Shown: piece by piece, positions 1-19,115 of the stretch | Layout: each line of letters starts with the position of its first letter | How positions within the stretch are numbered: position 1 is the stretch's first letter | Assembly: GCA_018267095.1 (NCBI GenBank) | Contig: JAFDZC010000017.1 | Location: forward strand, 142,431-206,430 | Direction: 5' to 3' | Length of the DNA stretch: 64,000 nt | Origin: Bacteroidota bacterium | GTDB lineage: Bacteria; Bacteroidota; Bacteroidia; Flavobacteriales; Flavobacteriaceae | Notes under the pieces: model-generated | What the model was told of the DNA's origin: nothing | Seen by the model: only the letters and a program-made list of their open reading frames with translations | Databases searched by the model: none | Made by a program: the position numbers and the translations under genes

Positions 1-8
1 TCTATTCT

Positions 9-428
9 TTACGGTATTCTGGTCATGACTTCAATATCTGTAACATCCTCGCTCACAAACTTGACTTTTAGTTTTGTAGCAGTGAGTTCGAGGATTTCTC
101 CACTAAAAGCGGGCTCGCCCGGATAGGTTATAGACACAGTATTGTTGCTTCTGCTGATGGTGCCGGTTTTAAGTGTTTCTGAACAGTCTGTGTCGTATTC
201 ATGACTTTTGATCACATTGGTTGAAAGGATTTCGATGTAATCTTTGGTACAGCCCGCGCTGTGCTCATAGTCCGTTAATACTTCTTCGTTGTCAACAAGC
301 GTACCGGTTTGGCTATACTGCCATTTGCCCGCTAAGGCAGCTGATTGCTTTGATGAACTGTCGCTGCTGCATGAAGTGATGCCGAAAATAAATACAACTA
401 GGATAGAAATGCTTTTTAGTTTGTTCAT
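9..428 (-). CDS. Lipocalin-like domain lipoprotein
   Basis: Lipobox ITSC after a hydrophobic stretch; GKWQY lipocalin-like motif; start placed at the second Met (MNKLK). Confidence 0.6.
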   Translation of the reverse strand: MNKLKSISILVVFIFGITSCSSDSSSKQSAALAGKWQYSQTGTLVDNEEVLTDYEHSAGCTKDYIEILSTNVIKSHEYDTDCSETLKTGTISRSNNTVSITYPGEPAFSGEILELTATKLKVKFVSEDVTDIEVMTRIP

Positions 429-571
429 GATTTTGGTCTTATGGTTTGTACTTTTCAAATTGATTACACGGCCGCAATGATTGTGCGCTTTTCTAAAATT
501 GAATGCAGTGTTCCGTATGTTGGCTAAGATAAGCGGTTTTGTTTAAGGAGTGCTTTTTTATTTTATGCTAG

Positions 572-1123
572 CTATTCAATATCATCAATAAAGTTATAAT
601 CCTGCACAAAATGCCCGTCTTTAAAGTATAGATATCTGTTTTCATTAGATGATTTAGCGCCCAAATCATAGATGAATTTGCCTAGATAATAGCTCGTTAG
701 GTCTGAGTGATAATACTGCGTGTCAATGCCCAAAATAGGGCGGTTGATGCGGTAGTCTACCTCCATTTGCTGGTTGTCGTAATACTCGGCCACAATAAAG
801 AGTTCGATTTTTTTGGCCGTGCATTTTTGTTGCAATAATTCAGGCGGAAAGCAGATTTTACTGTGGCACTTGGGGCTCCAAATATAGACCAGTGCTTTGG
901 GATATAGGCTCAGGCATTTTTTGACCTCGAGCCCGTTGACCACATAAATTTTGGGCTCATTGGTTTTTTGCACCGCACAAACCGAGGGTATTTGACCCGG
1001 CGCTACATAAAGCGATGGCTTTTGTTTTTGCATTTTGTGGTAATAACTGTATAAACCCGCCAGATTGCCTTTGATGGCGCAGGAATTCAACAACAAAATC
1101 AAGAATAAATAATAGCATTTCAT
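572..1123 (-). CDS. Hypothetical lipoprotein, possible thioredoxin-like fold
   Basis: MKCYY...LLNSC lipobox; WSPKCHSKIC motif; co-oriented with neighbours. Confidence 0.5.
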   Translation of the reverse strand: MKCYYLFLILLLNSCAIKGNLAGLYSYYHKMQKQKPSLYVAPGQIPSVCAVQKTNEPKIYVVNGLEVKKCLSLYPKALVYIWSPKCHSKICFPPELLQQKCTAKKIELFIVAEYYDNQQMEVDYRINRPILGIDTQYYHSDLTSYYLGKFIYDLGAKSSNENRYLYFKDGHFVQDYNFIDDIE

Positions 1124-1180
1124 AGGCTGGGAGGAAAGTACAAAAAAAGGTAGCATTTGTACAAATCCTACCTTTTGTTT

Positions 1181-1645
1181 TTATTTAGTGATTTTCATTC
1201 TTAGAATGTAGCCGCCATATCTGCCAACGCTTGGATTAAATTCATACATTCCTTTATACAAAATGGCATTGGGTTTTATAATGTCTGAATCTACTGCAAA
1301 AGGCAATTTCCAATTAATGGCTTCAATTTGCTGATCTTCTGTAGGCTCTAGTTCAATGGTCATGGTTCCTTCACCCGTTTGATCATCATAAAGCACTTTG
1401 CCTTTATGTTTGCTGGGTCTATCGGCTACGTCACAGTTCCAACAGCTATCAAAGTTACACAATCCCCAACCACCGCAATTGGCACTTTTATGTCCCCATT
1501 CTTCCCAGGTTGCATAAAATAGCCACCATTTGTTGGTAGTTGTATTGGTTTTGTTGGTTGGTGTATCAGCGTTTTCTTTTTCACAAGACACCAAACACAG
1601 GCAAACACATAAAGTTGCTGTGACGCTCAAAAATAATTTTTTCAT
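1181..1645 (-). CDS. Cys/Trp-rich hypothetical lipoprotein
   Basis: LVSC lipobox; WEEWGHKSANCGGWGLCNFDSCWNC motif. Confidence 0.6.
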   Translation of the reverse strand: MKKLFLSVTATLCVCLCLVSCEKENADTPTNKTNTTTNKWWLFYATWEEWGHKSANCGGWGLCNFDSCWNCDVADRPSKHKGKVLYDDQTGEGTMTIELEPTEDQQIEAINWKLPFAVDSDIIKPNAILYKGMYEFNPSVGRYGGYILRMKITK

Positions 1646-1882
1646 GGCTTAAAAATACTTCCCCTTTTGTGGCATGGATTCCATAGGACGATAGCTTTAG
1701 GTACTGTTTTTAGGTTCATGTACCGCCCTTGATGTGCACGATTATAATCTTTGTCAAAGTTACGTACCGATTAATTCTTGCAGGGTAGTTTTTCTTCATC
1801 TTGTGTTAAAAGTCAAAGGTTGGTTGCGCAGTTTGAATACTATAAAAGGCCTTTGCGTGAACTCTGTGATCATCAGTTCCCT

Positions 1883-2080
1883 TCACCCCCGCATCCATTT
1901 GCTCGCTTGCTCTACATCAATCCTCAGGTAGTTGCACACCTCTACGACGGTGAGCGGGATGTCTTGGCTTTTGTTGTAATAGGCGTAGATTTTTTTCATC
2001 AACCCGCGGGCATATTTATCGCTTTTTCCGGTGAGCTGACAGATGTCTTTGGTGTAAATAACAATTCGGTGCATAGGCAT
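1883..2080 (-). CDS. Small HTH-like protein, divergent from DUF6266
   Basis: 65 aa; IYTKDICQLTGKSDKYAR resembles an HTH; this divergent pairing with DUF6266 is common in Bacteroidetes. Confidence 0.55.
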   Translation of the reverse strand: MPMHRIVIYTKDICQLTGKSDKYARGLMKKIYAYYNKSQDIPLTVVEVCNYLRIDVEQASKWMRG

Positions 2081-2502
2081 TGGTTTTGGCTGTAAAACAA
2101 TCCGAAGCAGGCTATTGAGGCAGTGGGGCCGATCAAGGGCAAAAGGGTGGTGGAGTTATTTATTTTCAAAGAGCGTGCCAAAAATCATGCTCACTACTTT
2201 AAGGCACAGTCAAGGCAGCATCCTAGCAGCATGCACCGTAAAAATGCGTCTTGGCAGCGGTTTTCTCGAACAACGCTGCTACAATTCTGCCGGATTGTTG
2301 ATAAAAAAGTGGTCAAAAGCGGTCAAAAGCGGAACTTTTCGCCCTTTTATGACCTTTTTAACACCTTTTGCGGTTGTTTTCGGTCATTTTCGGTCGTTTG
2401 CACCCTGGGGGTTGCAAGCCCTAAAAACCCGTTTTACTTTTGGATTGTGATTGAGCTGCAGATCATTCATCAACAGAATGTTAAACTTTAAAACTATGTA
2501 AG

Positions 2503-3144
2503 ATGGCTAGAATTAGCAAAGGAATCCTCGGAGGATTCTCAGGTAAAGTAGGAACCGTAGTAGGTTTCAATTGGAGAGGCATCGACGTGATGCGCAGCGT
2601 TCCGAAAAAAGGGAACAGAATCCCAACCAGTAAACAAGCAGAGGTACAAGCCCAGTTTACGTTGACCGCTCATTTTTTGAACCCGATCAAACCGATTCTT
2701 TCGGATTATTTTGGGCAACCGTCGGCTGAAAAGTCGCGTTACAACTTGGCTTTTGCCTACCACAACCGCGAGGCAATCATCGGTACGTATCCGGATTATG
2801 AAATTGATTATCCCAAAGTAATCATCACCAAAGGCGAGCTTTTGGGCTTACAACAACCGCTGGTAACGGCCGATGCGGGGGCGGTGCTCAATTTTGGTTG
2901 GAATGACAACTCAGGCGAAGGCGAGGCCAAAACCACCGACCAGGTTCTGGTGGTGGTGTTTAACCCGGCGCGTGAACTGTTTGCCTATAGCACCCAAGTG
3001 GCCACGCGTGTTGACAGAACCTATCTGTATGACTTGCCCGACAATTGGGTGGGCGATACGGTACACGTTTGGATCAGTGTGGCAGATGCCGAAGGCAAAA
3101 AATGCGCTAGTAGCCTATATCTGGGCGCTGTAGTGCTGGTGTAG
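2503..3144 (+). CDS. DUF6266 family protein
   Basis: Characteristic N-terminus MARISKGILGGFSGKVGTVVG and C-terminal S.S.YLG. Confidence 0.8.
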   Translation: MARISKGILGGFSGKVGTVVGFNWRGIDVMRSVPKKGNRIPTSKQAEVQAQFTLTAHFLNPIKPILSDYFGQPSAEKSRYNLAFAYHNREAIIGTYPDYEIDYPKVIITKGELLGLQQPLVTADAGAVLNFGWNDNSGEGEAKTTDQVLVVVFNPARELFAYSTQVATRVDRTYLYDLPDNWVGDTVHVWISVADAEGKKCASSLYLGAVVLV

Positions 3145-3320
3145 TACCCTGAATGTTGTTGGTGTCAAACGCTCAAAGGTGGAAGCTTTTGGGCGTTTTT
3201 TTTATGCGTTGTTGAGATGCTGAGTGACTGAGTTGGGAGTCGGTCGTCTGTTATGCGAATGCCTCGATTAAACTTTATAAACTTTTTGCACTTAGTAAAC
3301 TTGTAGTTGGGTTTTAAATA

Positions 3321-3349
3321 AAAAAGCGAAGAGTTAGTCTTCGCTTTTT
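3321..3349. terminator. Bidirectional intrinsic terminator
   Basis: AAAAAGCGAAGA-5 nt-TCTTCGCTTTTT between convergent DUF6266 and UvrD genes. Confidence 0.65.
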
Positions 3350-3408
3350 ATTTTTTATGCGGTTTTTAGCTTTCGTCAGAGACGCTGGCTTCAGGTGACG
3401 AAGTTGTA

Positions 3409-5550
3409 TCAAACTTTCTCGCCGCAATATGGGCATGCAATCCATAGCTTTTCTAATTGTGCGTTGCAGTTTTTACAATTGATTGCATCAGCATCGTTTA
3501 GCTTCATGGATTCGCTGGTTTTTATGGTATAGGTTTCCGGTATTTCTTTTAAAAAACTAGATTCGTTTCCTTTCTCGGTAATTAAATAAAGCTTTTCTTT
3601 TGCTCTGGTTAAGGCCACATAAAATAATCTTCGTTCTTCTTCTAACAGCAAATCGCGATTGGCGGTTTTAATGACTTGAAAGATGCGGTCTTCTAACCAA
3701 ATATCCGGGAAGCCTCCGTGTCCTTCGGTTAATCCTACAATAAAAACGGCCTTGGCTTCTAATCCTTTTGAGGCATGAATGGTTTTGCCTTGTACTTTTA
3801 TGTCCTTTTTTTTGAATTTAGAAAAGTAATTGTAAAACATTTTACTTCGTCGGTATAAAAATAAGATGTCATCGGGATGAAGACCTTCGCTGAACAGTTC
3901 ATTTACTTTTTTAAAACAGAAATCAACATTCTCTTGCTCAGTACTACCGGAATACACTACTATTTTGTGTTCTGATTTTTTGTGTGAGTGAATTGATTTT
4001 TCTATTTTGAACTTGTTGTGTTTGATGACTTCATTACTCGCGCCCACGATGTTTTGTGTACTGCGGTAATTTTGGTCTAACTTGATGATGTTTGAATTCG
4101 GAAAGTGTTTTTCAAAATCAATGATGTAATCAACATTTGAGCCTCTGAATCCATAAATACTTTGCCAATCATCCCCAACACAAAAAAGCTGTGTTTGTTC
4201 GGTGAGCATGAGTTTTATTAAATCAACTTGTAAATTATTGACATCTTGAAACTCGTCTACTAAGATGTATTGGTATTTGGCTTTGTATTTTTTTAAAATA
4301 TCGTCATGGTTTTTATATAATGAAGCGCATGTTGCTATCAGGTCATTAAAATCTAAATAAGATTTATTAACCGTATAACGCATGTACTCATCCACAATGG
4401 GTATAGCCAGTTCATAAAAGTTTCTGATTCTCTCGTGTTGGTCTTTGCGGGCTTTTTCTAAAACATCTTCGGTACTTTGATTCTCTACTTTAATCATGTC
4501 GGTGATGCGCATAATTTGCTGAACAAAGTCTTTGATGTATTCCAGATATCCGTTAAACTCTTCTTGAAAGCTCAACGATACGTTTTTATGATAATTGGCC
4601 GGAAGTCGGTTCTTGATGATTTTATCTAAAGTATGATTGAACAGAGCCGAATCATGCGTCATTGAATCATAGGTCTTGACAAACAGCAATTTTCCTTTTT
4701 CAAATTGTTTTTCTTTGTCAGCCGTCGGAAAGCTCTTATCGCTTACGTGCTCTAGGTATAGATTGGCCTCGGGGATATAAAAATCCGGGCGAAAGTCAAA
4801 GTCTATTGCTTTGAGCAAGGGCTCATATTGGTATTTAATGCTGTGGCGGTATAACCAGTCGGCAATGAATTGTTCTGATTTTGAACGAACGCGTGTACCG
4901 TCTAACGTAGTAAAGAATTTACCGTCTTTGGGTTGTAGTACATCGTTTTTAGGGATGTGAATTTTGTCTACTAAATAATCTAATACATAGCGTTTGAGCG
5001 ACAAAAGATATTGGTTGTCTTCGCATTGCTCGATGATTAGTTTATGGAAAACTTCAAAAACGGTTTCAGGCGCAATGTATTTTGACCATTCATCTTCTTC
5101 CTGTTTTTTTTCGTCTCCGATGATCTTGAACTGATTGTCAAATTGTTTGACTCCATCGGTGCGCAGCACCCCGTAACAGAAACTGTGAAAGGTTCGAATG
5201 GTGAGCGCGTCAATCCATTTGTATTTTTTTTGCTGACGGTAGCGTTCTTGGTCTTTTTCTGGTTTTGAGTAGGATTTGCTGAAAAGTATTTGTTCATAGC
5301 TGCCCGAAGTATCTGCGGCCATAATCAGGCGGTCAATCATTTCGTTGGTGGCATTTTTGGTAAAGGTAATGGCCAAAATGCTCGATGGACTGACGCCTTT
5401 TTCTTCGATTAAGTAGATAATTTTTTGCAATAGGGTTTTGGTTTTGCCCGAACCTGCTCCGGCCAATACCAATACACGGTTATCTTGACAAACTACTGCC
5501 TCTTGTTGTTTGGTGTTCAGTGAACTTAGATCTGTTTTGGGTGTGCTCAA
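3409..5550 (-). CDS. UvrD-family (helicase IV-like) SF1 helicase with inserted PD-(D/E)xK-like domain and C-terminal Zn ribbon
   Basis: AGAGSGKT, ILVDEFQD, EERRLFYVALTRAK; insert RSKSEQFIADWL..YEP..RPDFYI..LEH; CxxC..CxxC tail. Confidence 0.9.
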   Translation of the reverse strand: MSTPKTDLSSLNTKQQEAVVCQDNRVLVLAGAGSGKTKTLLQKIIYLIEEKGVSPSSILAITFTKNATNEMIDRLIMAADTSGSYEQILFSKSYSKPEKDQERYRQQKKYKWIDALTIRTFHSFCYGVLRTDGVKQFDNQFKIIGDEKKQEEDEWSKYIAPETVFEVFHKLIIEQCEDNQYLLSLKRYVLDYLVDKIHIPKNDVLQPKDGKFFTTLDGTRVRSKSEQFIADWLYRHSIKYQYEPLLKAIDFDFRPDFYIPEANLYLEHVSDKSFPTADKEKQFEKGKLLFVKTYDSMTHDSALFNHTLDKIIKNRLPANYHKNVSLSFQEEFNGYLEYIKDFVQQIMRITDMIKVENQSTEDVLEKARKDQHERIRNFYELAIPIVDEYMRYTVNKSYLDFNDLIATCASLYKNHDDILKKYKAKYQYILVDEFQDVNNLQVDLIKLMLTEQTQLFCVGDDWQSIYGFRGSNVDYIIDFEKHFPNSNIIKLDQNYRSTQNIVGASNEVIKHNKFKIEKSIHSHKKSEHKIVVYSGSTEQENVDFCFKKVNELFSEGLHPDDILFLYRRSKMFYNYFSKFKKKDIKVQGKTIHASKGLEAKAVFIVGLTEGHGGFPDIWLEDRIFQVIKTANRDLLLEEERRLFYVALTRAKEKLYLITEKGNESSFLKEIPETYTIKTSESMKLNDADAINCKNCNAQLEKLWIACPYCGEKV

Positions 5551-5569
5551 AATATCTTAATTCTAATCA

Positions 5570-6205
5570 TTACTTTCTTCCGAAATCTGCTGGGTTCTCA
5601 CCCCAGTATTTGGTTTCCCATTTTAATACAGGGTTATCGTATTCATTGTTTTGTAGCCATTTTTCGGCTCTGGCTAGTAGATTAAACAGCTTTATATTTT
5701 TGTCACTTGGCGGATAAATATTCTTAGCCTTAACGTTTTGTACCCAACCCATAGCAATCGTGCTTTCTGAATATATAGGCAGAATTTCATACATTTCTTT
5801 GCAATAAGCCAAAGCATGTACAATAGCTAAGAATTCAACGATGTTGTTTGTGCCATCTTCAAACGGCCCTTGATGAAACAATACTTCACCGGTTTTTAAA
5901 AACAGCCCTTGATATTCTGCTAGACCTGTTGTGTTGTCTCGCGCCCCTTTGACTACGATACTGTTAATCCTTGGCGTACCTAACCTGAATAATTTTTCTT
6001 CAGATAATTGGCTTGCCAGGCTTTCCTTGCCTACATAATATGAACTGTCACTGGCAAAAGCCATTTCAGCCAAGGCTTTGGTTGAAAATGATTTGTACAC
6101 AGGAGCAGGGAAACCGTCTATTAATTCCTTGCACGCTTCCCAAGTATCAAAGATTCCGGTTTCACGGCCATGCCATACTACGTAATATTTGGGTTTGTTG
6201 GACAT
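5570..6205 (-). CDS. RNase H1-like protein (viroplasmin/hybrid-binding N-domain), catalytic Asp residues substituted
   Basis: KYYVVWHGRETGIF N-domain; GPFEDGTNNIVEF and WGENPADFGRK; VKGA in place of VDAA and YSES in place of YSDS. Confidence 0.85.
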   Translation of the reverse strand: MSNKPKYYVVWHGRETGIFDTWEACKELIDGFPAPVYKSFSTKALAEMAFASDSSYYVGKESLASQLSEEKLFRLGTPRINSIVVKGARDNTTGLAEYQGLFLKTGEVLFHQGPFEDGTNNIVEFLAIVHALAYCKEMYEILPIYSESTIAMGWVQNVKAKNIYPPSDKNIKLFNLLARAEKWLQNNEYDNPVLKWETKYWGENPADFGRK

Positions 6206-7995
6206 TACAACGAAAAATAATATTCTTTAATTTTTTGCGCCATTAATTTACGACGCATAACCAAAAAGTCATTGTAGTCGTCAATTGTCATGGTCATTAT
6301 TTCTTCGGGAACACAATTGGCCTTTAGATTATCTAACAATTCTTGATGGGTTGATAATCCACTAACCAATCTGTTATCCTGATTCATTTGTGAAACTATC
6401 AATTCAAAATATTCTTTAGGTGGTTTATTGCCTACCTTGATATTAATTTCTGACTGCATGAACACATAATTGGCAATCTGATTGTATTTTCCTCTTTCTA
6501 ACCCGTTCTTTTTTAGGAAGTCTCTCGGGAATAAGTGGTGTATGTCGCCTCTTAGTGAGATTAAGTCACTCACTAATACATCTTTCGATAAAAATCCTCT
6601 GTCATTTGCTTTTACTTGCGAAGCTAAAAATACATTGAAATATGGACTACTAGCAACTGAAGTATCTAAACTTTGCGGTAATGAGGCATTCCAGAAAGCT
6701 TCTGATAATTCTCCTTCTTCTTTCTCTTTTAAATATTCTTCAAAGGGACGGTTGTGAATTTGTTTAATATCGAAGTCAAACACCGATTCTGGCGAACCTG
6801 AATAACGACCGGTGAGTACTGAGAATACAAACCAGCGTTTCACATGACTTTCAATGGCTACGGAATTAACACCAAGCTCTCGTAATTTGAGATATAGAAT
6901 GTAAGCAAAGTTAAGTGCATTTTGAGAACGAATTAATTTAGGAGAAATAAAACCGGCCGATTTGATAATCATTAAGAAGCGCTTAAAGTTGGTTTCATTC
7001 ATAAAATTCATGACCCCCAACTTTAGTTTATCAAATGATTGTTCGGCTATGGCATCTTCAAAAGTTCGAGTTTCAAAGTTTCGACCTGAGAGCAAGCTAA
7101 CCAAGTCAGATAATCGACCACGGTTAAATTGTGATGTAAAGGCCACACGAATCAAATCAGTATATTCTGGGTCGTACAAATCTTCGTTTTCAGATTTTAA
7201 CCATTGCATTTTGCTGAAGAATTCAGTTGCTGCAAATTCTTGGTCATTGTCTACGATATGTTTGTAAAATTCCGGTGAAATGGCCAAATGGCAAAAGTAA
7301 TCGATGGCTTTGCGCAAGGTATTGCCTTGGTATTCGGTATTAGATGCTATTTTGCTCATCGCAAAATCAGCCTGACTTAGAACCACTCCTTTTGAGTTGA
7401 TACGAATAAAAATTTCGGTGACCGTTTCGATATCTAAATCGTGCGCCAATTCGATTATTCCAATTTGCTTTTTAGGAATGTTGATGAGGTTGGTAAACGC
7501 TTTTTCAACTTGGTCTTCATCTGCCTCAGGATTATAGGTTAAATAATGACGAACCAATTTCAAAATGCTTATTTCTCCACTAATTGCTTCAGAGATATTT
7601 GGAATCCAGCTGTTGTCTTTTAAAATAGCCGGGTTTTGCACTTCAAACTTCTCAGAGATAGGGTTGAAGGCTATTTTTATTTTTACCCTTTGGTAGGTTT
7701 TGTCAATTACATATTCACCCAGTAGGGCAGCGGTTAAGGCTGTTACTCTTTGTTGCCCATCAATCAATATTTTTTTGCCCTCACTCAAACTGCCGTCTTT
7801 CAGTCTGACATTCGGATTGCGCCATGCAATTACATAACCTACAGGAAAGCCTTGATACAAGCTATCCATCAAGTCTCTTACTTTCGAGCTATCCCATACA
7901 AACGGGCGTTGGATTTCTGGTATGGCAATTTCGCCTGACTTTACCCAGGTTAAAAGGGTTTCAATTAAGTGTTGGTTGACGGAGTATTTTTGCAT
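6205..7995 (-). CDS. GmrSD-type (DUF262 + HNH-like C-terminus) modification-dependent restriction endonuclease
   Basis: [25 protein letters not shown]; C-terminal DIHHLFP..NQIAN. Confidence 0.85.
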
Positions 7996-7998
7996 GGT

Positions 7999-8244
7999 TT
8001 ACTTGGTATTGATTTTTATTTTGTCTTCATCTGTTTGTGTAAACAAATAAGAATATTTTCCTTTTGATTTTGTACTTCTCAACATCACTTGCACGGCTAA
8101 GTCAATATTTTCTTTTCGGTTTGGATAAAGATTATTCTTTTCAATGTAAGTGGCTATTTCATCAAAAGAAGCCGTAAACGTTTCTTTATTGATGTTAATC
8201 AATGCTATAACAATTGCCTCGTGTAATGATAATAGATTTTTCAT
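7999..8244 (-). CDS. Small hypothetical, possible winged HTH
   Basis: Start at MKNLLSLHEA; helical pattern; tightly packed in the operon. Confidence 0.5.
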   Translation of the reverse strand: MKNLLSLHEAIVIALININKETFTASFDEIATYIEKNNLYPNRKENIDLAVQVMLRSTKSKGKYSYLFTQTDEDKIKINTK

Positions 8245-8248
8245 GGGG

Positions 8249-8497
8249 TTAATTGTTTTCACTACCCAACCACCCGGCAACTCTTGCTAGTTCCATCAAC
8301 TCATTAATCGAGTTTATGTCTGGAATTCTAGCTTGACCTCTTGCCGCTTGTAAACTTCCATCAGGTCTTCTCCAAATAAAACGATAACCATATTCACTAC
8401 CACCATCATCATAAATATACTCACACCATTGAAAAAATAATTGCCAATCATTTGGTTCGTCAGCGGAAACTTCATTGATAATTCTTACTCTTGCCAT
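8249..8497 (-). CDS. Small hypothetical protein (82 aa)
   Basis: Aromatic-rich QWCEYIY..GYRFIWRRPDGSLQAARGQARIP; in the operon. Confidence 0.6.
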   Translation of the reverse strand: MARVRIINEVSADEPNDWQLFFQWCEYIYDDGGSEYGYRFIWRRPDGSLQAARGQARIPDINSINELMELARVAGWLGSENN

Positions 8498-8512
8498 ATT
8501 TTAAATATTTAT

Positions 8513-9121
8513 TTAATATCTCCCTAATATCGGTTTTAATTCTCTTGCTAAATCCAGTTCAAGTATTGAAATCAAATCTTCCATTTCTCTTTCAAACACC
8601 ATATAGTTCAATTTTAATGGGGGCATTCCTTCTTGTACTTTGTACCAATGGTATAATTGTAATCCTGCTGTTTGTGAGCTTTTGTGATAACCTAAATGGG
8701 TAATTAGCCGTCCCCAGAATCCTGTTTTGACTTTACCAACATACAATGTCCTAGAATTTATATCAAAATCTTTTTTATAGGATGAAATGGCGCGGTTTGT
8801 TTTTTTGACTAAGTATTCTGTATACAATTGCCTCACCGCGTTAGCATTTATCTTGGTCTCGTCAATCTCGAACCAATACAAGACGGGGTTTTTGATTTGT
8901 TTTAACTGGTCAAAAACATCTTTTAGTTGAGCTGATTCTCTAATGTCATTATCAAAATAAAGTTTATTAAAATAAGTACCGTTGATATGTAAAGAGTTTA
9001 CTTCTCTATTAATAGATGAACAGGACTTTAAAATCGCAATTGAATTTTCTATACGCGTATTTAAGAAACTGGTAATCATTTTTTGATTTAAATTGAAATA
9101 TTTATGTAGTCTATAATCCAC
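8513..9121 (-). CDS. GIY-YIG-like nuclease
   Basis: VLYWF...LYVGK...RLITHLG...E..L...LKP.LG pattern. Confidence 0.6.
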   Translation of the reverse strand: MDYRLHKYFNLNQKMITSFLNTRIENSIAILKSCSSINREVNSLHINGTYFNKLYFDNDIRESAQLKDVFDQLKQIKNPVLYWFEIDETKINANAVRQLYTEYLVKKTNRAISSYKKDFDINSRTLYVGKVKTGFWGRLITHLGYHKSSQTAGLQLYHWYKVQEGMPPLKLNYMVFEREMEDLISILELDLARELKPILGRY

Positions 9122-10421
9122 TTTTGATACCTATTAATTCGAATAGAGGGTCATTTTCCCTTCTTCCTTTTTCATATCTAAAGTTTAAGTATTCTTCTAC
9201 AAATACCTTAGAAGGCAAAAATTCATCAATAATCATTTGTTCGTTAATATTATGTATCATTCTAAAATCAGTAAAAAAATAATTTCCTTGTTTGTTTTTC
9301 CTTTTTTCCAAATCTTTTTGCTCCCAATCGTTACCAAAACCCGCGATCCAATTATAGTAAAGTAAAATCTGCTCATGATTAGAAAGCATAGAACGAAGGA
9401 TTCTTAAATAATCCCTTTTTGATTCATACGTAATAGATTTTTCATCCTGTTTTACGACAAACTTTACTGTTTGAAATAAATGTCTGTAATAGTGTGCTAA
9501 TTTTGATTGATGGCCCGAAAAGGGTTTATAATTGAAGCTTAAATTTAAGTTTTTTGATCTGAAATTATTTGCTAAAATACTCCCAGAATTATAGTATTGG
9601 TTATATTGCTTAATGCCTAGATTTGAATGGGCATTTCTCTTATCTTTTATTTCAGTAACAAAATCCTTTAAGACTAATCTTAAAAATCCTGTTTCATCAT
9701 CATTCATGTATCTATCGATATTTTTTTCGTACAAGGAAATTCCGCTAAAAAAAACATAATATGAATGGTCTATGATAAACTGTTCGAGTTGTTGTTCGAC
9801 GTTTTTTTTTGAAGGTGATAAGAATTGATTATACTTAAATTTAAACACTTTAGTTGCGATAATATGCAATGCTTCAAATTCATTTAAAAGGGTTACAAAC
9901 ATTTTTTTTCCGCTGGTAGATTTTTCGACTTTAGAATCTAAGTCAGCGCTCGAACTTTTTCCCATTGGGTATTTGTTAAACTTATAGCCCTCAATTTTCA
10001 TTTCATTGAGATTTTCTCTATGTAAATGAAGCATCTCATAAAACTGACTTTCAAATTGTTGAATTTTAAATTGGTCTTGTATCAGTTTATTCGCTTTATA
10101 TTGTGCGTAGAACGCTAATCCTCCAGCAAGAATTCCAAATAATGCTAAGATAGGATTTAAAACTCCACCTATTAAATCACCCAATGTACCAGAATAGTCT
10201 ACAACTCCGTCTTTTAAAGTAGCATTTTCTATCCGGTTATCAACTACAACTAAACCATAAGTGAGTAAAGAAAACAAAACTAAAAATGAAGCGGTCATTG
10301 ATAGTTTCAAATTAAAGTTTTCCACTTTATCGTGAAGGATATATTTACTAGTTGCTATTATGATCAGATAAAAAAAGGAAAGGATAATTGCTATGGTACA
10401 AAATAGGCTGATATAAAACAT
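9111..10421 (-). CDS. Putative phage abortive infection protein (putAbiC-like) with N-terminal TM helices
   Basis: GTLGDLIGG, QQFESQFYEML, LAHYYRHLFQ..LRSMLSNHEQILLYYN. Confidence 0.75.
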   Translation of the reverse strand: MFYISLFCTIAIILSFFYLIIIATSKYILHDKVENFNLKLSMTASFLVLFSLLTYGLVVVDNRIENATLKDGVVDYSGTLGDLIGGVLNPILALFGILAGGLAFYAQYKANKLIQDQFKIQQFESQFYEMLHLHRENLNEMKIEGYKFNKYPMGKSSSADLDSKVEKSTSGKKMFVTLLNEFEALHIIATKVFKFKYNQFLSPSKKNVEQQLEQFIIDHSYYVFFSGISLYEKNIDRYMNDDETGFLRLVLKDFVTEIKDKRNAHSNLGIKQYNQYYNSGSILANNFRSKNLNLSFNYKPFSGHQSKLAHYYRHLFQTVKFVVKQDEKSITYESKRDYLRILRSMLSNHEQILLYYNWIAGFGNDWEQKDLEKRKNKQGNYFFTDFRMIHNINEQMIIDEFLPSKVFVEEYLNFRYEKGRRENDPLFELIGIKSGL

Positions 10422-10471
10422 ATTTTAATTTATTTTAGTAAATAACTTTACAAAGTTCGCGTTTTACTTTA

Positions 10472-13400
10472 TTACAAACCTTTAATATCACTAATCCTAG
10501 AGTCTATATGTTTCCATTCATCAGGGGTTATGTTCCAATGCTCACACAATTGATTGTCGGTATATTGACCTTTATAAATGCCCAAGTCAGGAATAAAGGC
10601 AAATGCCTTTTTTGTTACGTGTTGAGAAATCACCGATTGGAGTAATAAGAAACGAACAGTCTTAGTTAAAAGATAAGATTTGAATGATATGGCTTCTTCT
10701 TCAGTATTAAATGCTCCAGCAATAATGTACGATTCAGTGCAGCATTCCCCGGGTTTTGCAATTCGAGTATTGCCATCATAATAAAAACCTACCGGTTTTG
10801 TAAAATCCGTTTGTCCTGCTATAGGAGCAGGAGGAACTAATAACTTCCATTTATCAATATAATTACCACTATCAACCACATCTTTTTTATCGGCAAATTG
10901 TAACCCTATTTTTTGAATAAACCAACAAGGAATGCCTTTCTTTTTTGGGCTGTAGTTTGTTGGCAACCCAAAGGGTTTTCTTGAAGAAACTCTTTCAGAT
11001 AATCTCGTCTTATCTTTATTTAAATTATGAACTTTATGAAGAATATCAATTGCTTTATTATCTCTAATTAAAATTTCAAATTCATTAAGTTTTCTTTCTA
11101 CTGAACTTAACTCGCCGTTCATTCGGTTTGTAATAGTACAGTCTCCATCATAATTTTTGTCCCAAAGGAAATAACAAAGACCGCCAGCAATATCAACATT
11201 AGTAAATAGTTCAGTAGCATTCGGAAAGTCATGTAGAGCTGAAAGTCTTTTATCATTTAGCATAGAACCTCTAAATTCGTCCAAACCTTTCCCTCCAGCA
11301 TACCAACGGGCGGGCATAATCATCGAAATATAATCAGGCTTCATCTTTTTGGCAATGTCAACAAAATAATTGTAAACTGGCTTTGCACTAACACTATTTC
11401 CCCCATCCATTTCCTGGTAAGGTGGATTTCCAACTATTGCATTAAATTTCATATTGTCGTCATTATTAGTTTTCCAATAGGTTTTACCTTGTTTTACTTT
11501 TTCTAAAAAGTTTGTTTGTTTGTGTATAATTTGGTTCACCAAATCTTCAAAATATCGTGTGTTTACTTTTGCATTTCGGAATCCAATTAAAGTCCGCTTG
11601 GTAATACTTTTTGCCATGGGTGTTTTGCAAATCACAAAAATATTTTCAGCTACTACTTTGTCCCATATTTCATGCTGTTGCTCTAGTGTAGGAGGCTTGT
11701 TTTTATCAGGATAATTGGTGATAACAATGTTTTTATAAATACCATAAGCCATATACAGCGGATATAAACCCGACTTTGAATTGATTTCTAATATTTTAGA
11801 GTCGGTATGAAATATACTATTAGTAACGTCAGTATGATTTACAAAACGAGGCTCTTGTAATTTCTTTTCATAGTTCTCATCAAAAAAAGCATAACCACCA
11901 AGACAATCCCCCATGTGCATATTTACCACGCGCCAAGGCGTTAAGACCGTTTCTTTGTCAGGATTTCTAAACGTACTAAAGATGGTGGTGATGCTTTCAA
12001 TTCGTTCTTCAATGGTATATTGGTCGGTTGCCCTTGCCATGTTTCGAATTTTTTTCCCGGCTGCTCTAAAAACATCTTGGTCGTAATATTTTTCAAAACT
12101 TTTAAATACTTTTTTACTCACACCCTTGGGCATAAATTCTTCCCAAGATTGGTCATCAATCAATTCCGTAAAATTTTTAATGTTAAGTTCCTTGTCTTCA
12201 TCCTTTACATTAGCTCCATAAATAAGCAAGGGCATACGAATTGAAATACCTCTCAAAATAGAAATAGCACTATCTCTATTTTTGCGTTGTTCTTCTCGCT
12301 CTTTTAAAAGTCTTTTTTCCTCTTCTGTAAGTTCTTGTTTGGTTCTATTTTTCTTTTCGGCTCTTTCTAATGTTTCAAATTCTTCATTAGTAAATCCTTG
12401 TTTATTGATGTCAATATCACCACTTTTTGCCATGGCTTTCGTGCTACCAATAATCCCTTTGAGGGTTTTAAAATCTTTAAGTTCTACATCGTCCAATTTC
12501 ATGAGTTGGTCTTTGTTGTACAGATAACTATCTTCAAACCCATTGCTTACTACTTTTTCGATATATACTTTTTTGAGCTGTTCCAGCATTCCTTCAACTG
12601 CATATGCTTTCATTTTGGAACCATCTACAGCAATAATAGGGCAGAAGTTAAGAAACTCGCCCATAATGACACGGTCAGTGTCCGTTGTTTTTCCTGCTTT
12701 TGCGGATATTTTTGCTGCTTCAGCAATAACTTTCAAAGTTCTGTCGGGAGCAAAATCAAAAACAAAGCACTCTTCTTTAACTCTGCCGTTAATGGTAGCA
12801 GGTGTTTGAACTCTAAAAATAGTTTGCATATATGTAGAGGCTGCGGTATTATATGAGCCTGATAACATAAAGACAGCTGTCCAAGCAGGTACAGAAACAC
12901 CAGTAGTCAATCTTCCACAGGATAGCGTTATTGTATAAGTTTCATGAGGCTTTTTGGTTATAGCATTTTGTACTTTAATAAGTGCTTCATCATTTGTCTC
13001 TTCTTCATCACCATCACCTGCAACATTTACAATCTTAAATTGACCAAAAACAGGATGCGTTTGCAACAAAGCACTCAATGCTTTTGCTTCTTTTACACCA
13101 GGAACCATCCATAAAGAATGCCTAAAATTATCTCTATACTCAGTAGTAGCATAGGGGTAGTTACTTTCCTGATCAGCCTTGCAAATTAAATTTAAAAAGG
13201 ATTTTACATCATTTTCATGTAAGAAATTACCAATTTCATTTACTCTAAAGAATTCTCTAAAATTAAAAGCTAATTCTTCATCGATGAACTTTTTTAGAAG
13301 TTTACCAAGATCATAGGTATAAATGTTTAATCGCGGTAATGATGCATAAGGATTAGGGTCGCCAAAATGAATAGAATCCCATTCTGACTTTGCTCTTTGT

Positions 13401-14410
13401 TCCATTACATAATCCCACGTATATATTTCTTCTTCACTGTAATTATCAAATAAATTAAACGGAGTTCCTGAAAGTTGGAGAACTTTAGTTGTAGACTTTT
13501 TTAATTCCTTTAAAACACTATTACCTAGTTCGGTTTGGGTTCCTTCGTGCGCTTCATCAACAATGATAAAATCCCAAAGAGTATTGAAAATTTCATTGTT
13601 TTTGTCAAAATTCCCACCCACTTGTGCCGAACCTCTTAAATCTTGCATCGAAGCAAAATAGATGTATTTAATTTTACTTTTAGTGTGAAGTTTTTCTAGA
13701 GTTTCAAATGAATCTCCTTTGTTTTTAGAACCATATGTAAAGTTGGGTTTATCGTAGAATATCTTTCCAAAATCCTCAAACCATCCATCATTTACAACTG
13801 GTCTGTGGGTTAAAATAAGTGTCTTGTTAAAATCTAATTCTTTTACAACTTGTAAAGCAGATAAGGTTTTACCAAAACGCATTTTGGCATTCCAAAGCAT
13901 GTCATTACTTTTTTTAAACTGCTTTATTGTTTTATCAATTGCTTCTTTTTGTTCTGGCCTGAATGATACAGGATTTTTTTCAATTGATTTTTCTATTTGT
14001 CTTAGTGAATCTCTTCCGTCTTTAACTGCTTTGATAGCATTTTTTACGGTTTCAAGATCGGTTTCAAACCATTCATTAGCTTTTCGTTTGGTATCAAAAA
14101 TCTTTTTGTTAATTCCCGAACGAGTTAATACTTGATGCACTTCCGAGTCGGAAAAAGATTTTAAACCTTCTTTTGAATTGAAAATTGTTACTTCAGTATA
14201 TAACAAATCATAACTTAAACCAGCAGTTTGTGTATATTGATTTATTCGTCTTTTGGCTGCCTCGTTTAGAATTTTACTGTTGGGTTCTAGCCCCCAGATA
14301 TTTTCATTGTCAGCAGTTGTTTCACCAATTTTTAAACAGCCTTTGTGTACAGCATCATTAATGCGAAACACATAGATCAATTTTAGTTTTAATGTTGATG
14401 TAAACTTCAT
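10472..14410 (-). CDS. Type ISP/IIG-like RM enzyme: T5orf172/GIY-YIG nuclease + SF2 helicase + N6-adenine MTase (Eco57I-like) + TRD
   Basis: LIYVF..LKIGET; AKMRFGKT; IVDEAH; SGTP; AIVGNPPYQ; IMPARW. Confidence 0.85.
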   Translation of the reverse strand: MKFTSTLKLKLIYVFRINDAVHKGCLKIGETTADNENIWGLEPNSKILNEAAKRRINQYTQTAGLSYDLLYTEVTIFNSKEGLKSFSDSEVHQVLTRSGINKKIFDTKRKANEWFETDLETVKNAIKAVKDGRDSLRQIEKSIEKNPVSFRPEQKEAIDKTIKQFKKSNDMLWNAKMRFGKTLSALQVVKELDFNKTLILTHRPVVNDGWFEDFGKIFYDKPNFTYGSKNKGDSFETLEKLHTKSKIKYIYFASMQDLRGSAQVGGNFDKNNEIFNTLWDFIIVDEAHEGTQTELGNSVLKELKKSTTKVLQLSGTPFNLFDNYSEEEIYTWDYVMEQRAKSEWDSIHFGDPNPYASLPRLNIYTYDLGKLLKKFIDEELAFNFREFFRVNEIGNFLHENDVKSFLNLICKADQESNYPYATTEYRDNFRHSLWMVPGVKEAKALSALLQTHPVFGQFKIVNVAGDGDEEETNDEALIKVQNAITKKPHETYTITLSCGRLTTGVSVPAWTAVFMLSGSYNTAASTYMQTIFRVQTPATINGRVKEECFVFDFAPDRTLKVIAEAAKISAKAGKTTDTDRVIMGEFLNFCPIIAVDGSKMKAYAVEGMLEQLKKVYIEKVVSNGFEDSYLYNKDQLMKLDDVELKDFKTLKGIIGSTKAMAKSGDIDINKQGFTNEEFETLERAEKKNRTKQELTEEEKRLLKEREEQRKNRDSAISILRGISIRMPLLIYGANVKDEDKELNIKNFTELIDDQSWEEFMPKGVSKKVFKSFEKYYDQDVFRAAGKKIRNMARATDQYTIEERIESITTIFSTFRNPDKETVLTPWRVVNMHMGDCLGGYAFFDENYEKKLQEPRFVNHTDVTNSIFHTDSKILEINSKSGLYPLYMAYGIYKNIVITNYPDKNKPPTLEQQHEIWDKVVAENIFVICKTPMAKSITKRTLIGFRNAKVNTRYFEDLVNQIIHKQTNFLEKVKQGKTYWKTNNDDNMKFNAIVGNPPYQEMDGGNSVSAKPVYNYFVDIAKKMKPDYISMIMPARWYAGGKGLDEFRGSMLNDKRLSALHDFPNATELFTNVDIAGGLCYFLWDKNYDGDCTITNRMNGELSSVERKLNEFEILIRDNKAIDILHKVHNLNKDKTRLSERVSSRKPFGLPTNYSPKKKGIPCWFIQKIGLQFADKKDVVDSGNYIDKWKLLVPPAPIAGQTDFTKPVGFYYDGNTRIAKPGECCTESYIIAGAFNTEEEAISFKSYLLTKTVRFLLLQSVISQHVTKKAFAFIPDLGIYKGQYTDNQLCEHWNITPDEWKHIDSRISDIKGL

Positions 14411-15423
14411 ATTTTCTTATTTTTCAAAAGATCTACAAAAAATAGTTTTCTCCCCTTTTTTCCTGTTTTTAGATCTTTATTGCTCCAGTCTTTAATTATA
14501 CATTTAATACCACTATGCTTAGTAATATCATTATTTAAACATCCTTCGCAGAAGAATGTTTTGCTCTCAATTTCGCCAAATAAATTTTGATTAATTTTTA
14601 CAGTTGAGCTGCAGCTATTGGGTATAACTCCTTTCAGTCCATCCATTTGCCAAACATTCCATGATATTATATATGATATATATTGTATCGATTTTAGCAA
14701 TGGTTCTTTTCCAAATTTTGCAGTGTAGTTTTCAATAAAACTAAAAAGCATTGCCTCACGTGCCAAAAGTAAACTATCACCTTGCCATTCAAAAGCATAA
14801 GTGCTCTTATATGCGGTTTGTGCTGCTTCTAACCATTCTCCCGTAGTTTCTACATTTTCATTAATTATTCTAAGTTTTCTGTCTAACATACCAATTCTAT
14901 TCTCAATTGAAATGAATTCGCCTGTTGTTGTGTCATATCTGCTTGTTATGTAGGGTGCTTCACCGCAAGAAATTTCAAGACGAGTATCTCTAATGTAATG
15001 CTTCCAGCTTTTTCCTTCAGGGAAAACTATTTTATCAATGGTTGTCTCCCAACTTCTTGAACCGTCAGCATTAATAATCTCAATGTTAAAAATGTTACCT
15101 CTACCAAACCATTCATTATCAATTAGATTGTTCTGTGAATTGCATATCCATGAAGGAGTAAAAACTTCAGCCATGTCTCTCACTCTTGATTGTTGTAAAG
15201 TTTTATCCTTTTTTATACGGGGCATTATAACATGACCGTTCAAACCAGTTATGAGATTCGGCAATATTTCAGAATTAAAATCAAATCCAGCTCCCAAGTC
15301 TTTGTAATTGTTAGTTCCCCAAAAAATATTTTTTTGAGTAGTATGGTCACGTAATAAAATTTCTAATACATCAGGGTATTTTTCTCGTATATCGTTTTCT
15401 AGTATGTCAACTTCAAAGTGCAT
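14407..15423 (-). CDS. RM-associated methyltransferase N-terminal-half protein
   Basis: AEVFTP and LEISCGEAPY (motif I-like), NVWQMDGL; no NPPY motif; 4-nt overlap with the large RM gene. Confidence 0.75.
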   Translation of the reverse strand: MHFEVDILENDIREKYPDVLEILLRDHTTQKNIFWGTNNYKDLGAGFDFNSEILPNLITGLNGHVIMPRIKKDKTLQQSRVRDMAEVFTPSWICNSQNNLIDNEWFGRGNIFNIEIINADGSRSWETTIDKIVFPEGKSWKHYIRDTRLEISCGEAPYITSRYDTTTGEFISIENRIGMLDRKLRIINENVETTGEWLEAAQTAYKSTYAFEWQGDSLLLAREAMLFSFIENYTAKFGKEPLLKSIQYISYIISWNVWQMDGLKGVIPNSCSSTVKINQNLFGEIESKTFFCEGCLNNDITKHSGIKCIIKDWSNKDLKTGKKGRKLFFVDLLKNKKI

Positions 15424-15540
15424 TTATAAATGATATGAATTTGTACTAAAGCTTTTACAAGTTATTTGTATTACTCTAGGAAATTATTTTCCCAAACCTA
15501 CCAAATTTTCCGCATGCACCCAAGCAAAGCGGTATCTATA

Positions 15541-15882
15541 TTAACGGCTCATCGTCAGACTTTCGACCCCCAACTTTTCATATACATAACTGCCCTCAAT
15601 GGCACTCATAAAATACTCGGTAAATAAGTAATGCTCACCAATAAAGGCTTTACAGTAGCCGCAGGTATTGGCCGGGTAGGTGGTTTGTTGGGTGCGCGAA
15701 TATTGGGGTTGTATGGTGGCTCCGTGTTGCTGGGCCAGCTCGGTAAGTTGTGGGTTAAAGCCCTCGGGGCCATAAAAGTGGTGTGGGGCCGCGCCTTTGA
15801 TCATGGCTACTTTAACGGGTTTACGACACTTCCAGCATTGTGCATGCACCAAATACAGATGGGCGCTAGGGTTGTGGCTCAT
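15541..15882 (-). CDS. Small Zn-binding hypothetical protein
   Basis: CWKC...CGYC pairs; YSRT...Y.AN.C motif. Confidence 0.55.
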   Translation of the reverse strand: MSHNPSAHLYLVHAQCWKCRKPVKVAMIKGAAPHHFYGPEGFNPQLTELAQQHGATIQPQYSRTQQTTYPANTCGYCKAFIGEHYLFTEYFMSAIEGSYVYEKLGVESLTMSR

Positions 15883-15910
15883 ATCGGGTTGTGATTGCGT
15901 TGCCCAATAT

Positions 15911-15970
15911 TAGGGGTTTTCCTGCAACTTTTATTAGGGGAAACCCTAGTAAGGTGAGGGGATTTTGCCT
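15911..15970. promoter_or_regulatory. Tandem TAGGG-N4-CCCTA-like operator array
   Basis: TAGGGGTTTTCCTG (15911), TAGGGGAAACCCTA (15935) and a weaker third copy; matches the site at 31011. Confidence 0.45.
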
Positions 15971-16064
15971 AAGCGAACGCTTCGTTTTGAGACCGCTGCG
16001 CTTTAGGACACGGCTTCGCCTTTGGACCGCTGCGCTTTTAGAGGGTTGTCAGGGTCGGTTAGAC

Positions 16065-17026
16065 GGGTGTTTCAAAACAAACATTCTGCAAAAAGAGTCA
16101 TCGCTCATGATATGTTTTAGTCAGTTAGCGTCAGCAACTCAGGTACTCAGTATCTAAGGCACTCAGTAACTCAGTCACATGGAGTTGTTTTGGAGCGCAA
16201 AGTTGCTCAAAGTCAAAACGAAGTTTAATAAGGTTTAAAAAGTTTAAGAAGTTTAAGAAGTTTGGTTGCAACATGCTGTTGCACGGATTATCGCTTATGA
16301 AATGTTTTATTCGGTGTGCGTCAGCCCCCGGCGTCTTAAAAAAAGCGTACATAAAAAGAGGTCTTTGAAACCGTTAAGAACCAGGTGTGTTTGAACGCAG
16401 CGCAGCGGAGCGAAACCTTTAGGTTCACGAATACCTTAGGCAAAAATATTAAGGGATGAGTAATTCGGCTGGTTTAGGTTTGAAGGCCCTTTTTATAGCT
16501 TTTTTTGAGTGGCCGTGTGACTTTTTTGTTACTTTTTTTACCTCACTTAACAATGTTATATAAAGGAGTTCGGTGAATCTCGTTGAGCAAGATTGGTCAA
16601 ACCATTACATTCAGCGCAACTCGATTTGGCTACGGAAAAAAAGTAAAGCGCTAAAATCTATTTCAATGCTTATCGGTTACGAGGGTGTTTCAAAACAAAC
16701 ATTCCTCAAAACGATTCATCACTCATGAAAGTTTTATTCAGTGTGCGTCAAGCTACTCAGGCACTCAGCAACTCAGTCACATGGAGTTGTTTTGGAGCAC
16801 AAAGTAGCTCAAAGTCAGCACGAAGTTGAATAAGGTTTAAAAAGTTTGGGAACGCAAAGTAGCTCAAAGTCAAAACGAAGTTTAATAAGGTTTAAAAAGT
16901 TTAAGAAGTTTGGTTGCAACATGCTGTTGCACGGATCATCGCTCATGGAATGTTTTATTCGGTGCGCGACAGCTGCTCAGGCACTCAGTAACTCAGTAAC
17001 TCAGTAACTCAGGCACTCAGTAACTC
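16065..17026. repeat. Modular intergenic repeat array (two ~260-290 bp units plus ACTCAG 8-mer tandems)
   Basis: Units 16065-16325 and 16683-16973 share GGGTGTTTCAAAACAAACATTC, CACATGGAGTTGTTTTGGAGC, CTCAAAGTCAAAACGAAGTTTAATAAGG and GGTTGCAACATGCTGTTGCACGGA. Confidence 0.9.
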
Positions 17027-17135
17027 TTGAATAGTGCAAACAAAAAAACCTCTAAAACCATTCGTTGTGATTCTAAAGGGTTCGTTGTATTACAACGAGC
17101 TTTTACCCAAGAAAAGCTGGTTTATTTATTCAAGA

Positions 17136-17588: not shown

Positions 17589-17835
17589 TGTTTTGATTTT
17601 TAGGATTAGTGCCGAAAAATACAAAAATATTTTTTCGACAAAAACTTTTTTCACGGGCATAATAGACCGTTAGAGCTTTAGTGATTTGATGTTTGTATTT
17701 TATAATTCTCTCGTCAAGATTTTAAAATGAAACAGTTTTTAAAAGTTTCTGCGATGCAAAAGACCCTTTTTTGGTGCGTGTATTGACCTGAAAAAAAACT
17801 CAGGTTACGTTTGTAATGATTACCTTGAGCCAACC

Positions 17836-19095: not shown

Positions 19096-19115
19096 TTTAT
19101 GATGCAGGCGTTTGT

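Follow-up and report, generated by a model that had tools for sequence, protein, structure and literature searches.

A putative pseudo-RNase H1 paired with a UvrD-family helicase in Bacteroidota defence islands

The DNA analysed here is a stretch of 64,000 nucleotides from a Bacteroidota bacterium of the Flavobacteriaceae (contig JAFDZC010000017.1, positions 142,431 to 206,430 of the forward strand), which originates from sludge metagenomes and is hereafter called the window. Three closely packed genes on its minus strand encode a homologue of GmrSD-type type IV restriction enzymes, a homologue of RNase H1 and a UvrD-family helicase designated UvrD714 (Table 1). The gene in the middle is the subject of this study; its product, with lysine in place of a catalytic aspartate, is referred to as the K form. 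The stop codon of GmrSD and the start codon of the RNase H gene overlap by one base (TAATG), and a gap of 19 bp separates the RNase H stop codon from the start of the UvrD open reading frame (ORF). Both junctions had been read in this way in the initial annotation of the locus, and the motifs listed there, NSIVVKGARDN (residues 81-91), NNIVEF (120-125), PIYSES (143-148) and NPADFG (204-209), were all found in the 211-aa ORF exactly as written. The coupling to GmrSD holds in the window but is not a general trait, since GmrSD is missing upstream of the RNase H gene in two of the four K-form loci.

The identity of the protein was assessed with profile and structure-sequence searches. The N-terminal domain was identified by Pfam as Cauli_VI (PF01693; residues 6-47, E value 1.4e-18), and the N-terminus also matched the structures of the yeast and human hybrid-binding domains (1qhk, 3bsu) in the Protein Data Bank (PDB). 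The RNase_H match in Pfam was sub-threshold; in the PDB sequence search, residues 87-211 were aligned over 125 residues with the Bacillus halodurans (Bh) RNase H structure at an E value of 3e-33. The closest NCBIfam model was NF046109, the Halalkalibacterium/Bacillus halodurans-type RNase H (E value 2e-63), and the score of 214 bits fell below the equivalog cut-off of 320. Two of the features that define a Bh-type RNase H1, the hybrid-binding domain and the RNase H-fold domain, are therefore present. No second RNase H gene was found within the 64-kb window, the only part of the genome checked.

The catalytic columns were examined in an alignment of the 120 best homologues and Bh RNase H, in which Bh D71, E109, D132, D192 and E188 correspond to K86, E124, E147, D207 and E203 of the window protein. 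Among these 121 sequences, the first column holds D in 119 and K in two, the second E in all 121, the third D in 119 and E in two, and the fourth D in 120 and N in one. This distribution of K and E is far from chance, and the D-E-D-D tetrad was complete in all 118 other homologues among the best 120. The window protein lacks the full tetrad of a type 1 RNase H (K86, E147): K86, R89 and E147 replace D, W and D, respectively, whereas E124, E203, D207 and the TNN phosphate-pocket motif of the Bh enzyme have been retained. The local register is unambiguous (SIVVKGARDNTTGLAEYQG versus SIAVDGAW(N/D)xxTGLVEYQG in the family). The consensus SI.VDAA.SGN against which the substitutions had originally been judged was inaccurate, the family motif being SIAVDGAW[ND], and the conclusion drawn from it, a pseudo-nuclease, is unaffected. 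The K86 codon, AAA, is two nucleotide changes away from GAY. The Bh enzyme uses D71 as a ligand for metal A as well as metal B; its activity is lost when residues of the DEDD motif are substituted, and the inactive D132N variant can still bind hybrids, forming Michaelis-like complexes (PMC12992507). With Lys86 at the metal-bridging position, a canonical two-metal centre is therefore not possible in the window protein.

The K clade consists of four proteins, the window protein (P0001), P0002, P0276 and P0277, in a search space of about 5.8 billion clustered proteins. P0002 is 84% identical to the window protein, is the sole other carrier of both K and E among the listed hits, and additionally has D192N in Bh numbering (D207N). 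The other two members were contributed by the 90% cluster of the window protein: P0276 has K86, R89 and E147, with a different C-terminal tail, and P0277 combines K86 and R89 with an unchanged Asp at 147. From these four sequences, K86 and R89 define the clade, with the other carboxylates drifting. P0276 (L107:10001-10642) ends in ...WGENPADWAENNS versus ...WGENPADFGRK in the window protein, and the otherwise invariant C-terminal FGRK is gone, through either a frameshift or a genuine sequence variation. A scan of metagenome contigs returned no further K-form members, only relatives of 45-57% identity.

Selection on the K form was assessed by the ratio of nonsynonymous to synonymous substitution rates (dN/dS). 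In six pairwise comparisons inside the clade, dN/dS was 0.07-0.10 at dS values of 0.78-1.04, and it was 0.10 for the catalytic domain alone; the corresponding values were 0.055 for a pair of intact RNases H and 0.05 for the partner helicase. Leaving aside the C-terminus of P0276, frameshifts and stop codons were absent from all four K-form ORFs. Strain-specific decay with dN/dS near 1, the outcome that the initial annotation had set against its own proposal, is ruled out by values of this size across four members. In a neighbour-joining tree the K clade was monophyletic. Its stem measures 0.19 substitutions per site and is exceeded by only one of the 121 internal branches, which average 0.027; owing to this length, the sister group suggested by the tree was not trusted. 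When the family-conserved columns (at least 95% in intact relatives) were inspected, 91 of 95 were found to be retained, and the hybrid-binding domain is kept too. The four exceptions, altered alike in P0001 and P0002, the two K-form members aligned, are K86 and E147, each in place of D, R89 in place of W, and A/S96 in place of V. Shared by the whole K clade and rare in relatives are N81, T77 and N175, at which acidic residues were lost; the basic K86 and R89 are likewise fixed, and so is N162 at the position of Bh S147. The net outcome of these clade-specific changes is predicted to be an active-site face that is less acidic and more basic. A burst of change centred on the active site, followed by constraint, argues for a change of function rather than for gene loss. 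As expected of a pseudoenzyme, the protein combines homology and loss of catalytic residues with purifying selection, and the lysine at the bridging site, the clustering of the changes around the active site and the low dN/dS support the original proposal of a pseudo-nuclease rather than a decaying gene.

The K form does not occur apart from the helicase. In all four K-form loci, UvrD714 lies 12-19 bp downstream of the RNase H gene, an obligatory adjacency, and intact RNase H relatives with a UvrD714 partner were found at 10 or more further loci, several of which lie behind or within restriction systems (Table 1). Other neighbours of the pair include PLD-SNF2, DUF4391 and MmeI-like methylase genes and integrases, and a common local synteny surrounds the pair in F. 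enshiense and F. polysaccharolyticum. In the more distant RNase H1 homologues (45-52% identity), the UvrD714 neighbour is missing. Scanning the GTDB species representatives, one genome per species, yielded 72 UvrD714 loci across Bacteroidota, and an RNase H gene was located directly upstream in 17 of the 62 with sufficient upstream sequence; these comprise 10 intact genes, three of a tandem type and four degraded ones, one of them by an IS3 insertion. In that case, Bacteroidetes bacterium UKL13-3 (L043:4790-6959), the hybrid-binding domain of the partner is split by an IS3-family element (HTH orfA and rve orfB). At L017 and L023, only short RNase H remnants lie upstream of the helicase. RNase H proteins of 94-98% identity occur in metagenome-assembled genomes (MAGs) assigned to different genera, and such near-identity across genera, with flanking genes that vary by locus, indicates that the pair moves horizontally. 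The RNase H-UvrD714 unit is a conserved, horizontally mobile two-gene cassette in Bacteroidota restriction and defence islands. A Pfam census of 98 neighbouring ORFs was weakly informative, most defence families coming from the Flavobacterium-type loci.

A direct comparison of K-form and intact alleles is offered by L081, a 41-kb contig from a freshwater metagenome that represents a sister strain and covers the same chromosomal hotspot, with flanks 92-96% identical at the nucleotide level. The three-gene block common to the window and L081 stops sharply at both of its ends, and in L081 it has the same order, GmrSD-RNase H-UvrD, with an identical one-base overlap and 19-bp gap. The UvrD proteins of the two strains are identical (dN 0, dS 0.057) and the GmrSD genes share about 94-98% nucleotide identity. 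The RNase H of L081 (P0031) has an intact DEDD motif and 63% protein identity to the window allele. The divergence is confined to a segment of the gene body bordered by mismatch-free flanks of 100 and 90 bp, which has the appearance of a recombination or replacement cassette. The mosaic does not stem from chimeric assembly, because the 25,241-bp contig was recovered from two runs belonging to different studies, without a single difference and at even depth. The converse mosaic was found at L109, where GmrSD has 98% protein identity to that of the window, the K-form RNase H 88% and the helicase 90%. The two mosaics indicate that the RNase H gene body has been exchanged between operons by recombination. 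On this sequence comparison, dead and live RNase H alleles can apparently serve one and the same helicase, and RNase H catalysis looks dispensable for the helicase partnership. The expectation that the D-to-K clade tracks with defence islands was not borne out, since intact alleles occupy the same islands and, once, the very same operon. Across the window, L081, L109 and L004, the GmrSD protein is 94-98% identical, and the downstream pairs vary between 66 and 100%; the conservation of GmrSD beside divergent pairs points to separate histories of GmrSD and the pair, which nevertheless recur together. At L003, McrBC holds the upstream position of GmrSD.

A second kind of dead RNase H fold was found at L028, L046 and L077 (Puia, a Chitinophagaceae MAG and a Flavobacteriales MAG), where the protein encoded upstream of the helicase is 322-370 aa long and contains two RNase H domains. 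Its N-terminus is an E. coli-type RNase HI (PF00075, E value 1e-20 or better) with no hybrid-binding domain, and the catalytic residues of this domain are all replaced (D10Y/F, E48D, D70T/S, H124V/I, D134E/Q). The Bh-type RNase H that follows at the C-terminus is intact. Since a dead RNase H fold here takes the usual place of the hybrid-binding domain, the feature required by the helicase partner is probably the binding of hybrids.

The helicase itself belongs to superfamily 1 (SF1). Compared with PcrA, UvrD714 has no 2B domain and carries an insert of ~240 aa in domain 1B (residues ~134-372); its C-terminus forms a CxxC...CxxC zinc ribbon. The absence of a 2B domain is shared with DarH, the helicase of DarHTG (PMC13069673). 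Across orders, UvrD714 proteins are 73-76% identical, and the insert is highly conserved, with E226, D256 and E267/H268 invariant. For the insert, Pfam at E values up to 10 gave only noise, a PDB sequence search gave no match, and when the insert by itself was used to look for homologues, nothing but fragments of the same helicase family came back. AlphaFold models were of low confidence, with a predicted local distance difference test (pLDDT) score of 38 for the insert alone and of 56 for the full protein, in which the insert stayed below 50. The order of elements predicted for the insert by this low-confidence model, helix-strand-strand-strand-helix-strand, together with the invariant E226, D256, E267 and H268, would be compatible with a PD-(D/E)xK core, and to call UvrD714 a nuclease would be a guess. 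The best PADLOC matches of UvrD714 were GajB and a DRT-associated helicase. No close relative was found in phage and viral collections, and plasmid matches were below 30% identity; a phage or plasmid origin of UvrD714 was therefore rejected. A distant homologue on an Acinetobacter plasmid has no RNase H neighbour.

We favour, with about even confidence, the interpretation that the pseudo-RNase H1 and the UvrD helicase form a module of defence islands that has not been described before, with the former as the subunit for hybrid recognition. The RNase H-like subunit would recognise RNA:DNA hybrids on invading DNA, such as R-loops, replication primers and transcription-coupled hybrids, and would bring or license the helicase, plus any activity of its insert, on hybrid-bearing DNA. 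In the K form, recognition would be uncoupled from cleavage, and the hybrid may be held without metal ions thanks to Lys86 and Arg89 and to the removal of some four acidic residues. Hybrid sensing and recruitment of the helicase are suggested by the gene order and the retained binding domain, and we infer that the protein binds hybrids, is coupled physically or functionally to the helicase and has an anti-phage or anti-plasmid role. Of the interpretation given in the initial annotation, the pseudo-nuclease in a defence island stands, and the sensor that recruits a helicase-nuclease is plausible rather than an established fact. It is possible, and we propose it more tentatively, that the pair as a whole is an undescribed mobile immune system of Bacteroidota, with hybrid-based recognition, an exchangeable RNase H-like module and optional cleavage, in which dead hybrid readers have arisen at least twice (the K86 clade and the dead RNase HI domain).

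Phages and plasmids cannot replicate or be transcribed without passing through RNA:DNA hybrids. We know of no characterised bacterial defence system that centres on a dedicated RNase H1-type hybrid reader, and none built on such a reader was found in searches of the literature and PADLOC. If the proposed role is correct, hybrid recognition rather than RNA removal would be the valuable activity here, and the K form would be a compact natural R-loop binder with a built-in comparison, the intact allele in an otherwise identical operon. UvrD714 is a widespread family of Bacteroidota defence-island helicases that is apparently not resolved by current defence catalogues.

Several observations weigh against a dedicated hybrid reader in a defence module. 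The K clade is tiny, with four sequences that are all metagenomic, and its dS values are near saturation. Four carboxylates remain (E124, E147, E203 and D207) and D90 lies close to K86, with which an altered or weak residual activity may be compatible. The UvrD714 insert matched no nuclease family in the Pfam, PDB and homologue searches. An RNase H partner is missing from 45 of the 62 UvrD714 loci, which implies that the helicase works without one. The Chitinophagaceae-type loci are often flanked by ordinary genes (a nucleoside symporter, YicC), the literature search gave no paper describing the RNase H-UvrD714 pair, and no PADLOC model matches the RNase H protein.

The main alternative is a housekeeping pair that serves the host or the island by clearing R-loops or settling conflicts between transcription and replication and has no immune role, with the K form being regulatory or hybrid-stabilising; we consider this unlikely. 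UvrD/PcrA helicases and RNase HI are both known to act on R-loops, and a maintenance function would fit the non-defence neighbours in several Chitinophagaceae-type loci, the same synteny around the pair in F. enshiense and F. polysaccharolyticum, and the high conservation of the pair across orders that is evident in UvrD714. It fits poorly with the sporadic distribution, with near-identical proteins across genera, with pairs situated inside a type I restriction-modification operon or directly behind McrBC or GmrSD, and with integrases close by. Even at L084 and L085, the neighbour is a PLD-DEAD-DUF3427 restriction-like enzyme, and an enzyme that is selected minus its cutting centre is hard to explain by maintenance. 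A guard or decoy function is given a low probability: the dead RNase H would mimic the RNase H1 of the cell and thereby trap a phage inhibitor or detect interference, or it would shield hybrids from host RNase H. The swap of the whole gene body between near-identical operons is a turnover typical of phage-facing components, and the defence-island setting agrees with it, but intact alleles occupy the same position, so that a decoy role is unnecessary to explain the gene, and we know of no candidate phage inhibitor.

The two remaining alternatives concern the active site itself. The K form might still be a nuclease, possibly on another substrate, with a remodelled centre composed of E124, E147, E203, D207 and perhaps D90, and with Lys86 serving for metal or as a general base. 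The persistence of four acidic site residues, the strong purifying selection on the catalytic domain and the conservative nature of the D-to-E change at 147 would be in keeping with such a centre. We nevertheless regard it as improbable, given that D90 is not specific to the K clade, being present in 46 of 120 relatives, that D207N in P0002 and D at 147 in P0277 are the pattern of unconstrained carboxylates, and that the lost Asp ligates both metals, DEDD substitutions being inactivating in type 1 RNases H (PMC12992507). A tolerated loss of function, in which one lineage happened to lose its catalytic residues and the gene hitchhikes with useful neighbours, is disfavoured and is given very little weight. 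The rarity of the clade, four sequences in about 5.8 billion clustered proteins, and the intact allele that the sister strain has instead are what would be expected from it; dN/dS of 0.07-0.10 at dS about 1 in six comparisons, the absence of frameshifts and stop codons in four members, the two nucleotide changes needed for K86, fixed jointly with R89, and the 91 of 95 conserved positions kept are not.

The window protein was compared with known systems of related build or logic. Bh RNase H1 (1ZBI/1ZBF; NF046109) has the same plan, an N-terminal hybrid-binding domain and a type 1 RNase H domain; relative to it, the window protein has D71 replaced by Lys, D132 by Glu, S74 (Trp in the Bacteroidota family) by Arg and S147 by Asn, and its gene, unlike that of the Bh enzyme, lies in defence islands as the first of two genes, the second of which encodes a UvrD-family helicase. 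In the engineered dead enzyme Bh D132N an active-site carboxylate is likewise replaced, and human RNase H1 D210N is used in the laboratory as an R-loop probe. Unlike engineered mutants, the window protein is natural and selected, and its charge-reversing Lys at the metal-bridging site is accompanied by surface changes. Short prokaryotic Argonaute (pAgo) systems and the pair of DdmE and DdmD, the latter a helicase-nuclease, rely on a dead RNase H-fold protein that engages a nucleic-acid duplex and passes the target to an adjacent effector. The likeness lies in working logic only, since the window protein has no PIWI, MID or PAZ domain (Pfam gave only Cauli_VI and RNase_H), shows no sign of using guides and has an SF1 UvrD-type helicase as its partner. 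As for Gabija, GajB is among the best PADLOC matches of UvrD714, with a PDB match limited to residues 16-75; in contrast to Gabija, the neighbours here are RNase H1-like and GmrSD proteins, and UvrD714 has the 1B insert and the zinc ribbon. GajA (OLD/TOPRIM ATPase) was not among the matches listed for nine island proteins (for the helicase, the best 25 of 54 families). The window protein belongs to neither the Gabija nor the Argonaute family. A precedent for a module of the hybrid-binding-domain and RNase H type within a phage-defence protein is found in RnlA/LsoA (RNase LS), for whose N-terminal viroplasmin plus RNase H-fold module a role has been proposed in guiding the effector to the RNA of DNA-RNA duplexes, e.g. 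viral priming intermediates (PMC3710099). RnlA and LsoA are toxins of toxin-antitoxin pairs and carry the module fused to a HEPN RNase, whereas in the window it is a separate protein beside a helicase, with no HEPN. Retroviral reverse transcriptase has a degenerate RNase H connection domain followed by an acquired active RNase H; this tandem of dead and live domains resembles the proteins of L028, L046 and L077 rather than the window protein, and lineage and context are unrelated. New here are the obligate RNase H-UvrD714 pairing of the K form, the swap of RNase H alleles beside a helicase that stays identical and, independently, the dead domain of the RNase HI type.

Table 1. Features of the window and of the loci compared with it (positions are those of the window unless a locus is named)
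Feature	Position	Strand	Remarks
K-form RNase H1 homologue, 211 aa	5570..6205	-	ORF call
Hybrid-binding domain, then linker, then Bh-type RNase H domain	residues 6-47; residues ~81-211
UvrD-family SF1 helicase UvrD714, 713 aa	3409..5550	-
GmrSD-type type IV restriction enzyme homologue, 596 aa	6205..7995	-
Three-gene block common to the window and L081	3397..8013	-	~93-100% nucleotide identity except RNase H body
Divergent gene-body segment	5591..6158	-	codons ~16-205, 204 mismatches, about 36% nucleotide difference from L081
A-run/hairpin/T-run, bidirectional terminator-like	3321..3349	-	about 60 nt past UvrD stop
Upstream island part	8513..15423	-	202-aa ORF, AbiC/AbiP-like protein, type IIG-like enzyme, methyltransferase
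Tandem RNase H genes	L028:5972-6940; L046:5984-6952; L077:5849-6961
Flavobacterium sp. RSB2_4_14			intact pair behind McrBC
Flavobacterium MAG			intact pair behind GmrSD
Flavobacterium sp. WC2416			intact pair between type I hsdS and hsdR; McrBC, integrase close by
Ferruginibacter			intact pair behind type II restriction-modification system
F. enshiense, F. polysaccharolyticum			intact pair beside NUDIX gene and PLD-DEAD-DUF3427 enzyme

The remaining genes of the island are consistent with the defence setting claimed at the outset: GmrSD is accompanied by an AbiC-like protein and a type IIG restriction-modification enzyme. The N-terminal part of GmrSD was identified by Pfam as DUF262/GmrSD_N (E value 1.6e-30); its C-terminal His-Me-like (DUF1524) part was recognised in the sequence from a DIHHLFP...N motif and had no Pfam match. 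No terminator-like site was found on the minus strand within the three genes, and the one past the UvrD stop codon is the probable end of the operon.

Upstream of GmrSD, a 436-aa multi-pass membrane protein with an AbiC/AbiP-like domain is encoded at 8513-10421 (minus strand), overlapping by 11 bases the 202-aa ORF; the two are possibly a two-gene abortive-infection unit. A 1312-aa fusion protein (10472-14410, minus strand) consists of a weak T5orf172/GIY-YIG-like N-terminus, a ResIII/DEAD helicase, an Eco57I-type methylase and a type IIG-like C-terminus. Its gene is preceded, with a 4-base overlap, by that of a 338-aa type II methyltransferase (14407-15423).

The island borders are common to the window (7999-15972) and L081 (561-6281), with 92-96% nucleotide identity, and the cargo upstream of GmrSD differs. 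The window carries the type IIG-like enzyme, the methylase, the AbiC-like protein and small ORFs, and L081 carries a type I-like methylase and S subunit and a HEPN_RES_NTD1-RES protein. From this comparison, the site appears to be a variable defence hotspot. No tRNA or non-coding RNA integration site was found near the island, in positions 1..20000. The region at 1700-2500 has no convincing ORF, yet is 92-96% conserved with L081, and no tRNA or Rfam family was found in it. Beyond the island, a 174-aa predicted lipoprotein encoded at 17136-17660 (minus strand) consists almost wholly of Asp-rich repeats (DDDNDGISD...) that resemble calcium-binding repeats; on the opposite strand, these repeats have probably produced a spurious long ORF.

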